From the NCBI RefSeq assembly GCF_003790525.1, contig NZ_CP033635.1: a stretch of 64,000 nt of DNA. One strand, written 5' to 3'. The notes beneath the pieces are model-generated. The model ran no database searches and was not told the origin of the DNA. It was given only the letters and a program-made list of their open reading frames with translations. How positions within the stretch are numbered: position 1 is the first letter of the stretch; the number at the start of each line of letters is the position of its first letter. This stretch comes from Escherichia coli (GTDB taxonomy: Bacteria > Pseudomonadota > Gammaproteobacteria > Enterobacterales > Enterobacteriaceae). Shown here in pieces: positions 2,247 through 43,939 of the stretch. Both the position numbers and the translations under genes were made by a program.

Positions 2247-2361
2247 AGGTGCCTACTTGTTTCTCATTAACTGGATAACTACCTCATGGGGCGTTTGACA
2301 GCGACATGAGACCAGATGATTTGCCAACGAAGGAGAGATTAAATAATCAACAGTACAATGA

Positions 2362-2381
2362 TAATGAGAATGGTTTCTATC
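2362..2381 (-). promoter_or_regulatory. Fur-box-like element in feoA upstream region (tandem GATAAT-like hexamers: ATGATAATGAGAAT)
   Basis: By-eye match to Fur consensus GATAATGATAATCATTATC; feoAB is known to be Fur-repressed. Exact site unverified. Confidence 0.3.
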
Positions 2382-2435
2382 AGCAATACTTAAAATGTGT
2401 GTGAATGTTGGTTTGAATAATAATCTGACTCAATG

Positions 2436-2449
2436 TTGATATGGCTCAA
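2436..2449 (-). promoter_or_regulatory. FNR-like half-palindrome TTGATATGGCTCAA upstream of feoA
   Basis: Matches TTGAT-N4-NTCAA with 9 of 10 consensus positions; feoAB is known to be FNR-activated. Confidence 0.3.
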
Positions 2450-2574
2450 GGTTATATCGCAGCGAAAATATAATTCGCATGACGAATTATTAGGGCTGGT
2501 TAATGTTTAATTAAGGTTTCAGTTGTTAATGAAATGATAAATATTAACGGGATATATTATGAGTTTGCTTGTGG

Positions 2575-2605
2575 AATAAAAAGGCCGGAGATATTCTCCG
2601 GCACT
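2575..2605 (-). terminator. Probable intrinsic terminator downstream of tex (hairpin GCCGGAGAATATCTCCGGC with flanking T-runs on both strands)
   Basis: Palindrome at about 2584..2602; T-rich on minus strand after the stem. Confidence 0.45.
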
Positions 2606-2683
2606 TTTATGTCAGGCAAGGCGTTCGTTGCCAGATGTGGCGTGAACGCCTAATCGCGCAGGTTTAGGGGCCAGTCCGGGCGT

Positions 2684-5005
2684 TTAACGTTTTTTGCCCA
2701 TTGCCGCCGCCAGCGCATCCATCATCGCGCTATTACCGGCAGGCTGCGCTTCACGCCCACGCGGTTTGGCTGCCGGGCGGTTGTTCTGCGGACGTTCATT
2801 ACCGCCGCCGCGACGAGCGTTGGTTTCGCCAGGCTGCTCGTCCAGACGCATAGTCAGGGCGATACGTTTGCGCTGAAGATCCACTTCCAGCACTTTCACC
2901 TTCACAATATCGCCCGCTTTCACCACGGTATGCGGATCTTCCACAAACTTGTTCGACAATGAAGAGATGTGAACCAGGCCGTCCTGATGAACGCCAATAT
3001 CGACAAACGCGCCAAAGTTGGTGACGTTGGTCACCGCACCTTCGAGGATCATACCCGGTTGCAGGTCGTTCATCGTTTCGACGCCATCGGCAAACTGAGC
3101 GGTTTTAAATTCCGGACGCGGATCGCGACCCGGTTTTTCCAGCTCTTTGATGATGTCAGTTACCGTCGGTACACCGAATTTTTCATCAGTAAAGTCAGAC
3201 GCTTTCAGGTTACGCAACTCGCTGCTGTTACCCATCAGATCTTTCAGTGCCTGCTGTGTTGCTGCCAGAATGCGTTCCACCACCGGATAGGCTTCCGGGT
3301 GGACGGTAGACGCGTCCAGCGGGTTATCACCATGGTTAATGCGCAAGAAGCCCGCGCACTGCTCGAAGGCTTTCGGCCCCAGACGGCTCACTTTCAGCAG
3401 TTGCTGACGGTTCTGGAACTGACCGTTCTCATCGCGCCAGGCAACGATGTTTTGCGCCATCATGCGCGTCAGGCCCGCCACGCGAGTTAACAGCGGAACA
3501 GAAGCGGTGTTGAGATCGACGCCAACGGCGTTTACGCAGTCTTCTACTATTGCGTCCAGTTTGCGGGCCAGTTGCGTCTGGCTGACGTCATGCTGATACT
3601 GACCTACGCCGATAGATTTCGGATCGATTTTCACCAGCTCCGCCAGCGGATCCTGCAAACGGCGGGCTATAGACACCGCGCCACGCAGCGAAACGTCGAG
3701 ATCCGGGAACTCCTGTGCTGCCAGCTCGGAAGCCGAGTAAACCGACGCGCCAGCTTCGCTGACGATCACTTTCTGCGCGGTCACTTTCGGGAACTGCTTC
3801 TGCACGTCGAGATAGAAACGCTCGGTTTCGCGGGAAGCTGTACCGTTGCCGATCGCCACCAGTTCAACGTTATGCTTTTCACACAGGGCAGCAACGGTCA
3901 TCGCTGCTTTTGCGGCTTGTCCGGTATGTGGATAAATGGTATCGGTCGCCACCAGTTTGCCAGTTGCATCGACCACCGCTACTTTTACCCCGGTACGCAG
4001 ACCCGGATCGAGGCCCATCGTTGCACGCAGTCCGGCTGGGGCCGCCATCAGCAGATCGTGCAGGTTACGGGCAAAGACGTTGATTGCTTCATCTTCCGCG
4101 CGTTCGCGCACGGTGCCCATCAGTTCGGTTTCCAGATGCATCAGCACCTTGATGCGCCACGTCCAGCTCACCACGCCTTTGCGCCAGCTATCCGCCGGGG
4201 CATTGTTCAGGCGCAGGCCAAGGTGATCCATGATGATTTGCTCGCAATAGCTCTCTTTCGGCGGCTCTTCGAACTGCGGATCGGCATTCAGCGAAAGCTG
4301 AAGTATGCCTTCGTTACGCCCACGGAACATCGCCAGCGCGCGGTGAGAAGGCACCGTGGATAGCGGTTCGTGATGATCGAAATAGTCGCGGAATTTCGCC
4401 CCTTCCTCTTCTTTACCGCTCACCACCGTCGAAACCAAATGCGCGTTCTTCCACAGATAATCACGCACTTTTGCCAGCAGCGCGGCATCTTCGGCAAACC
4501 GTTCCATCAGGATATAGCGCGCGCCGTCCAGCGCGGCTTTGGTATCTGCCACGCCTTTATCTGCATCAACATATTGTGCAGCCGCGACTTCTGGCGTGTG
4601 TGACGGATCGCTCCACAGCAGGTCAGCCAACGGCTCAAGCCCTGCTTCAATGGCGATTTGCCCGCGGGTGCGGCGTTTAGGTTTGTAGGGTAGGTAGAGG
4701 TCTTCGAGTTCGGTTTTGCTTAAGGTGGCGTTGATGGCCTTCGCCAGATCATCGGTGAGTTTGCCTTGCTCGGAAATGGATTTGAGGATCGCCTGACGCC
4801 TCTCTTCCAGCTCGCGCAGATAGCTCAGACGCGTTTCCAGATTACGCAGCTGCGTGTCATCCAGACCGCCGGTGATTTCCTTACGATAACGTGCGATAAA
4901 CGGCACGGTATTCCCTTCGTCAAGCAGGCGAACGGCAGCGTCAACCTGTTCCGGGCGCGCCTGAATTTCACCCGCAATAATGCGGCAGAACGAATCATTC
5001 ATCAT
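2684..5005 (-). CDS. tex: Transcription accessory protein Tex (YhgF), S1 domain RNA-binding
   Basis: 773 aa ORF; translation recognised ([20 protein letters not shown]...). Confidence 0.95.
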
Positions 5006-5578: not shown

Positions 5579-5805
5579 CTCGTTGATTCCCTTTGTCTGT
5601 TTGATAATGCGCACATTGGGTATAACGTGATCATATCAACAGAATCAATAATGTTTCGCCGAATAAATTGTATACTTAAGCTGCTGTTTAATATGCTTTG
5701 TAACAATTTAGGCTGAAATTCATACCAGATTTAGCTGGTGACGAACGTGAGCTTTTTTAAGAATACACGCTTACAAATTGTTGCGAACCTTTGGGAGTAC
5801 AAACA

Positions 5806-43912: not shown

Positions 43913-43926
43913 ATTGATGTAAATCA
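43913..43926 (-). promoter_or_regulatory. FNR binding site of nirB promoter (TTGATGTAAATCAA, perfect TTGAT-N4-ATCAA)
   Basis: Perfect FNR consensus centred about 64 bp upstream of nirB ATG, consistent with the known -41.5 site of the nir promoter. Confidence 0.8.
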
Positions 43927-43939
43927 AATTCACCTTTAT

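Follow-up and report, generated by a model that had tools for sequence, protein, structure and literature searches.

Fur, FNR and ArcA/OmpR sites in the spacer upstream of feoA in Escherichia coli SMS-3-5, and their correspondence to published binding positions

The 437-bp spacer between tex (yhgF) and feoA in E. coli SMS-3-5 is very probably the regulatory region of feoABC (a probability of about 0.93), with Fur on the promoter, FNR and ArcA/OmpR upstream of it, and a leader of about 106 nt. The decisive support is published in vivo binding at orthologous positions together with phylogenetic conservation; the motif matches by themselves would argue only weakly against a chance origin. Control of feoABC by Fur and FNR, with sites mapped genome-wide, is already known, and Fur repression and FNR/ArcA activation of the operon have been described since 1993. 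The practical yield of the analysis is an exact coordinate for each element in the window (the whole 64,000-nucleotide stretch of DNA that was analysed) and the correction of one motif coordinate. What had been described as a ‘long upstream region’ is mostly tex terminator, REP-like hairpin and upstream activator sites rather than long leader (Table 1).

The window was identified as E. coli SMS-3-5 (100% match), and the spacer is 100% identical to NC_010498.1 3747312-3747748. The RefSeq annotation of the identical SMS-3-5 record names yhgF, feoA, feoB and feoC, and the order of genes along the minus strand is greB, tex/yhgF, the spacer, feoA and feoB. With the tex stop codon beginning at 2684 and the feoA start codon at 2246, the spacer measures 437 bp, in good agreement with the roughly 440 bp of the original prediction. 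Its description as AT-rich also holds, with a G+C content of 39.8% compared with 52.3% across the whole window. Of 5426 complete E. coli genomes, 5425 contain the spacer.

The binding data considered here were obtained in K-12 and CFT073 and were carried to SMS-3-5 through near-identical sequence. E. coli K-12 has the same locus and gene order, with a spacer of 456 bp rather than 437 bp and approximately 95% identity over the aligned part. The two strains do not differ in the core of the Fur footprint, in either hexamer (-35 or -10), in the ArcA/OmpR site or in the final ~90 nt ahead of the ATG, and every distance from the FNR site to the ATG is equal. The differences are a single base in the non-contacted spacer of the FNR site (CCAT in SMS-3-5, CCAC in K-12), two bases beside the start site (AC in SMS-3-5, GT in K-12), a small number of substitutions in the interval from the ArcA site to the FNR site, and a REP-flanking stretch after tex that is 19 bp shorter in SMS-3-5. 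Judged by this sequence comparison, SMS-3-5 would be expected to behave like K-12. Two versions of the K-12 coordinates are in use in the published data, and the offset between them (1978) was calibrated on the exact string of the ArcA site. Conservation was assessed with one FeoA scan, which returned 80 Enterobacteriaceae loci, 76 of which were aligned with the window; it is expressed as the mean, over each feature and the 76 loci, of identity to the base in the window.

Table 1. Features of the tex-feoA region in window coordinates, with mean identity to the window base across 76 Enterobacteriaceae loci
Feature	Window position	Strand	Basis	Conservation
feoB CDS	from 2002, running past window start	-	ORF list and RefSeq annotation	
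feoA CDS, 75 aa	2019..2246	-	ORF list and RefSeq annotation, SMS-3-5	
Whole spacer	2247..2683			0.47
feoA 5' leader, ~106 nt	2247..2352	-	Counted from the second-hand published start site	0.53
AAGTAGG, likely ribosome-binding region	2252..2258	-	Present in nearly all of 76 loci; putative function	
Fur operator containing ATGATAATGAGAAT	2351..2384		K-12 ChIP-exo, CFT073 ChIP-seq, phased consensus matches, conservation	
Fur-like 14-mer ATGATAATGAGAAT	2358..2371		Exact string	0.99
Putative -10 hexamer TATCAT	2358..2363	-	Read from the sequence	0.97
Putative -35 hexamer TTGCTG	2381..2386	-	Read from the sequence	
FNR binding site, TTGAGCCATATCAA on the feoA strand	2436..2449		K-12 ChIP-seq/matrix site and conservation	0.85 (half-sites 0.92; spacer 0.68)
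Perfect 8-nt palindrome ATAATTCG-N5-CGAATTAT	2470..2490		Inverted-repeat search	
Conserved block around ArcA/OmpR site	2498..2548		Conservation, compared with 0.47 spacer-wide	0.67
ArcA site TTGTTAATGAAATGATAAATA	2523..2543		ChIP and matrix (Park et al. 2013); exact string in window	0.73 (as ArcA/OmpR site)
tex intrinsic terminator	2576..2610	-	Terminator scan, fold, inverted repeat	
REP-like hairpin, tex 3' untranslated region	2619..2651	-	Inverted repeat and fold	
REP and terminator part after tex				0.22
tex/yhgF CDS, upstream neighbour	2684..5005	-	ORF list and RefSeq annotation	

The predicted Fur-like string, ATGATAATGAGAAT, is present in the spacer at 2358..2371. The position first given for it, 2362..2381, was wrong: its start is 4 nt off, and a span of 20 nt cannot fit a 14-mer. 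Fur operators were considered as matches to the 19-bp consensus GATAATGATAATCATTATC or as arrays of GATAAT-like hexamers, and matches of 13/19, 13/19 and 12/19 were found at 2354, 2360 and 2366, respectively. A 6-bp phasing of this kind is the usual look of Fur operators. In K-12, the iron-replete Fur ChIP-exo peak P104 (3538047-3538080, target feoA; PMC10164565 supplement) maps to -138..-105 from the ATG, which corresponds to 2384..2351 in the window, a 34-bp segment (GCTGATAGAAACCATTCTCATTATCATTGTGTTG) that has the predicted string inside it. The centre of the CFT073 Fur ChIP-seq peak (3966911) lies 116 bp upstream of the feoA ATG and is the A of CATTATCATT, again within the predicted string. 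Expression data are available for both strains: feoABC is approximately 10-fold derepressed in a CFT073 fur mutant, and Fur repression of a K-12 feoA-lacZ fusion is seen only anaerobically, an effect that Beauchene et al. 2015 attributed to activation by ArcA and FNR.

The position of the promoter could be related to a transcription start site, albeit a second-hand one: the ArcA coordinates in Table S6 of Park et al. 2013 place +1 at -106 from the ATG, or position 2352. The supplement of Kim et al. 2012 contains no feoA entry. The putative -10 hexamer, TATCAT, is 5 nt upstream of this start site and 17 bp downstream of the putative -35 hexamer, TTGCTG; most other genera have TTGATG or TTGAAG at the -35 position. 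Relative to the same tabulated start site, the Fur footprint extends from approximately -32 to +2 and covers TATCAT and part of TTGCTG. This overlap suggests that Fur occludes the core promoter. A simple promoter scan returned a single match, on the plus strand, and missed the feoA promoter because TTGCTG matches the -35 consensus at only 3/6 positions.

A second small cluster of Fur-consensus matches (12-13/19) was observed at 2530..2554, overlapping the ArcA/OmpR site. With a single Fur peak tabulated for feoA by K-12 ChIP-exo, the cluster probably reflects no more than the resemblance of AT-rich sequence to the consensus.

The ArcA site reported by Park et al. 2013, TTGTTAATGAAATGATAAATA, occupies -191..-171 from their mapped start site, and feoABC expression was 3.7-fold lower in an arcA mutant in the same study. 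With +1 taken from their table, the site is centred at approximately -181. The site also bears on a second regulator. Gerken et al. 2020 found that OmpR shifts a feo promoter fragment that contains the predicted motif ttATCAtttcattAACA at -294..-278, and this motif overlaps, or is contained in, the ArcA site. The sequence fits the pattern of ArcA/OmpR-family sites, direct repeats of TGTTA-like elements at a spacing of approximately 11 bp. The conserved block around it has the arms of an 11-nt inverted repeat at its two ends (GTTAATGTTTA at 2499..2509 and TAAATATTAAC at 2538..2548). The part of the block at 2498..2522 (TTAATTAAACATTAAC on the feoA strand) lies outside the ArcA/OmpR site and is kept in many genera.

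The palindrome at 2470..2490 lies between the FNR and ArcA sites. It is of the TT-N9-AA type, like the NagC pattern, and we take it to be a candidate that may account for the database-listed NagC site of feoA. The palindrome differs in K-12, and the surrounding DNA is poorly conserved (0.28). NagC is listed as a co-regulator of feoA by Myers et al. (PMC3688515), and the regulators listed for K-12 feoAp are Fur, FNR, ArcA, OmpR and NagC.

The FNR-like motif was found exactly where it had been predicted, as the string TTGATATGGCTCAA at 2436..2449, with a 9/10 match to TTGAT-N4-ATCAA. The ChIP-bound FNR matrix site upstream of feoA in K-12, TTGAGCCACATCAA at 3537982 (Myers et al. 2013, PMC3688515), occupies -203..-190 relative to the ATG, equivalent to 2449..2436 in the window, and differs from the SMS-3-5 sequence by one non-contacted spacer base. 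The deconvolved peak from the same study (3537996) is approximately 7 bp from the centre of the site. Thus, comparison with published binding data placed both Fur and FNR on the proposed sites, and the suggestion that the two motifs represent the established regulation of feoABC by Fur and FNR is borne out by the K-12 and CFT073 data.

The location of the FNR site relative to the promoter is unusual. Counted from the start site implied by Park et al. 2013, Table S6, its centre is at -90.5. Of the 23 FNR-activated promoters considered by Myers et al. (PMC3688515), 19 have a site at -41.5 ± 4 and one has a site at -60.5, and sites at -61.5 or farther upstream are described there as very few. The nirB site, taken up below, falls at -41.5. 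FNR positions that support activation are either near -41.5 (class II) or at approximately -61 or further upstream (class I). The feoA position is therefore an atypical distance, a mild oddity against the usual -41.5. FNR is reportedly able to activate engineered promoters from near -92, in work attributed to Wing and colleagues in 1995, and the centre of the feoA site is close to that position. At feoA, FNR may act as an upstream, class I-type activator. Myers et al. (PMC3688515) observed no FNR-dependent change in feoA expression in iron-replete conditions, which they attributed to masking by Fur.

A perfect FNR consensus, TTGATGTAAATCAA, is present elsewhere in the window, at 43914..43927, 59-72 bp upstream of nirB, for which Myers et al. 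(PMC3688515) give the FNR site as TTGATTTACATCAA. Recovery of this classical site by the same pattern search provides a positive control within the window. The nirB and feoA sites share the factor and the TTGAT-N4-ATCAA motif; however, the nirB site is a perfect consensus of class II that overlaps the -35 region, whereas that of feoA deviates from the motif at one position and is situated upstream of the core promoter.

The atypical distance could also mean that FNR serves a second, class II promoter that starts near 2398-2401, which would place FNR at approximately -41 to -45. A weak -10-like hexamer, CAACAT at 2410..2405, would put FNR near -44.5, and two promoters have been proposed for feoABC of Yersinia pestis (PMC5519574). 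However, CAACAT matches TATAAT at only 3/6 positions and is no better conserved than its surroundings (~0.57), and the idea was ranked low because this -10 match is poor and unconserved. In addition, the promoter scan gave no minus-strand match there, no published start site was found near 2398-2401, and transcripts from such a promoter would still cross the Fur operator. It is improbable that FNR drives a second class II-type promoter, or that it forms a far-upstream complex with the 2498..2548 block and ArcA/OmpR; if either were true, the control region of E. coli feoABC would have two promoters or a loop, an arrangement missed by current annotation.

The original prediction had also allowed for a long 5' untranslated region, which now appears poorly supported, since with the start site taken from Park et al. 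2013 the leader is ~106 nt long and not ~440 nt. The remaining ~330 bp of the spacer hold the upstream activator sites, the tex terminator and the REP-like hairpin. The terminator hairpin (2584..2602) has an 8-bp stem with six G-C pairs and a 3-nt loop, and is followed by a U run; the hairpin leads into CTTTTTATTC at 2602..2574, and the terminator looks bidirectional. The tex 3' region folds strongly (z = -3.88), and this combination of REP-like hairpin and terminator argues against read-through from tex. The REP-like hairpin matches the REP-derived family naRNA4 weakly, at a score below threshold, and has a conservation across genera of 0.22; the K-12 copy has an adjoining 19-bp indel.

It is consequently very unlikely that the spacer is mostly long leader RNA (a structured 5' untranslated region or riboswitch) or tex read-through, with control largely post-transcriptional. 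In favour of such a leader, the spacer is, at 437 bp, long for E. coli, the last ~90 nt before the ATG are unchanged between SMS-3-5 and K-12, and the AAGTAGG element is conserved. Against this stand the strong intrinsic terminator and REP-like hairpin after tex and the short leader implied by the tabulated start site. The leader also folds no better than shuffled sequences (z = -0.08), its conservation across genera (0.53) is well below that of the promoter block, and no Rfam family reached its gathering threshold, whether the region or the full window was searched.

Several weak candidates in the region were set aside. The weak Rfam matches to naRNA4, RmaA and AaHKsRNA41 are accounted for by the REP-like hairpin and the terminator. 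A permissive Rfam search also returned the Salmonella small RNA STnc390 at 2550..2616 on the plus strand (29.6 bits, compared with a gathering score of 50). No STnc390 match was found in the spacers of Salmonella (two loci), E. albertii, Citrobacter or Klebsiella, and the candidate was rejected because Salmonella and related loci lack it; the match, which is centred on the terminator hairpin, is probably an artefact. Small open reading frames in the spacer (32-39 aa on the plus strand; 2-7 codons in the leader) are unconserved and without support as genes.

Motif frequency and conservation were also compared. Among simulated spacers of matched composition, 19% had one or more Fur 19-mer matches of at least 13/19 and 2% had three such matches, as observed in the real spacer; the FNR pattern with at most one mismatch arose in 4.5%. 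The whole window contains 16 Fur matches of at least 13/19, and 7 FNR matches with at most one mismatch where 2.1 were expected. Across the 76 loci, the predicted Fur string ranks 1 of 424 spacer 14-mers for conservation, and the core AAAC(C/T)ATTCTCATTA(T/C)CAT is near-invariant across genera, as would be expected if Fur and the -10 element constrain the same bases. The FNR site is kept as TTG(A/C)(G/T)-N4-(A/G)TCAA in 74 of the 76 loci, with at least nine different N4 spacers, and in most loci it is found between -182 and -208 relative to the ATG. Although such match frequencies leave room for chance look-alikes in AT-rich intergenic DNA, with no regulatory role, that explanation is exceedingly improbable for motifs on which the FNR and Fur ChIP peaks of K-12 and CFT073 exactly fall, one of them the best-conserved 14-mer in the spacer and the other with half-sites that are kept while its N4 varies.

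The best-supported model for the region is transcriptional control of feoABC from a single promoter. Published experiments, mapped here, place Fur, FNR and ArcA at these orthologous positions; they also establish that OmpR binds the motif-containing fragment in vitro and that expression depends on Fur and ArcA. Along the minus strand, the end of tex would be followed by the REP-like hairpin, the terminator, the ArcA/OmpR site (approximately -181) and the FNR site (-90.5). Next would come a sigma-70 promoter (TTGCTG, 17 bp, TATCAT) with the Fur operator over -32 to +2, and then the ~106-nt leader with the conserved AAGTAGG before the ATG. When iron is present, Fe2+-Fur over the core promoter would block RNA polymerase; when oxygen is absent, upstream-bound FNR and ArcA would increase transcription, to which OmpR could add. 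A Fur block combined with activation by FNR and ArcA implies that the operon would be expressed most highly in cells that are both anaerobic and iron-poor.

Related feo systems show a similar layout in part. In Salmonella enterica, feoAB is activated by the OmpR-family regulator RstA (Jeon et al. 2008, as cited in PMC7315122); as far as that citation goes, Salmonella resembles E. coli in having an OmpR-family regulator and a direct-repeat motif far upstream of a Fur-repressed promoter, with RstA documented in Salmonella and ArcA and OmpR documented for the corresponding stretch of E. coli. In the Salmonella loci, the FNR site is again present, at -204, as is the Fur/promoter block. The feoABC operon of Y. 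pestis, with promoters P1 and P2 (O'Connor et al. 2017, PMC5519574), has a Fur-regulated promoter near feoA and, as in E. coli, putative FNR and ArcA motifs upstream. However, its upstream region has no detectable DNA similarity to that of E. coli, and the Y. pestis operon is not regulated by FNR, ArcA or RstAB; an upstream, iron-independent promoter was proposed instead (PMC5519574). A second feo promoter has thus been proposed in Y. pestis, whereas none is documented for E. coli.

Three further observations concern the surrounding DNA. The stretch at 5700..5800 is the ompR-greB spacer, where an antisense RNA, AsompR, is annotated over the 5' end of ompR in K-12, and the Fur ChIP-exo table (PMC10164565) lists a Fur peak, P103, in the K-12 ompR-greB intergenic region. 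Directly after the tex stop, the REP-flanking DNA at 2655..2683 differs from K-12 by the 19-bp indel and several substitutions, which partly explains why about half of E. coli genomes have a spacer identity of 90-95%. Finally, in the urine isolate E. coli EC488 (NZ_CP109874.1) the spacer is reduced to its first 123 bp; the remnant is followed by an IS1 transposase gene and then rtcB, and feoABC is missing together with the genes as far as rtcB, so that EC488 is apparently a natural feo-less strain that arose through an IS1-associated deletion.
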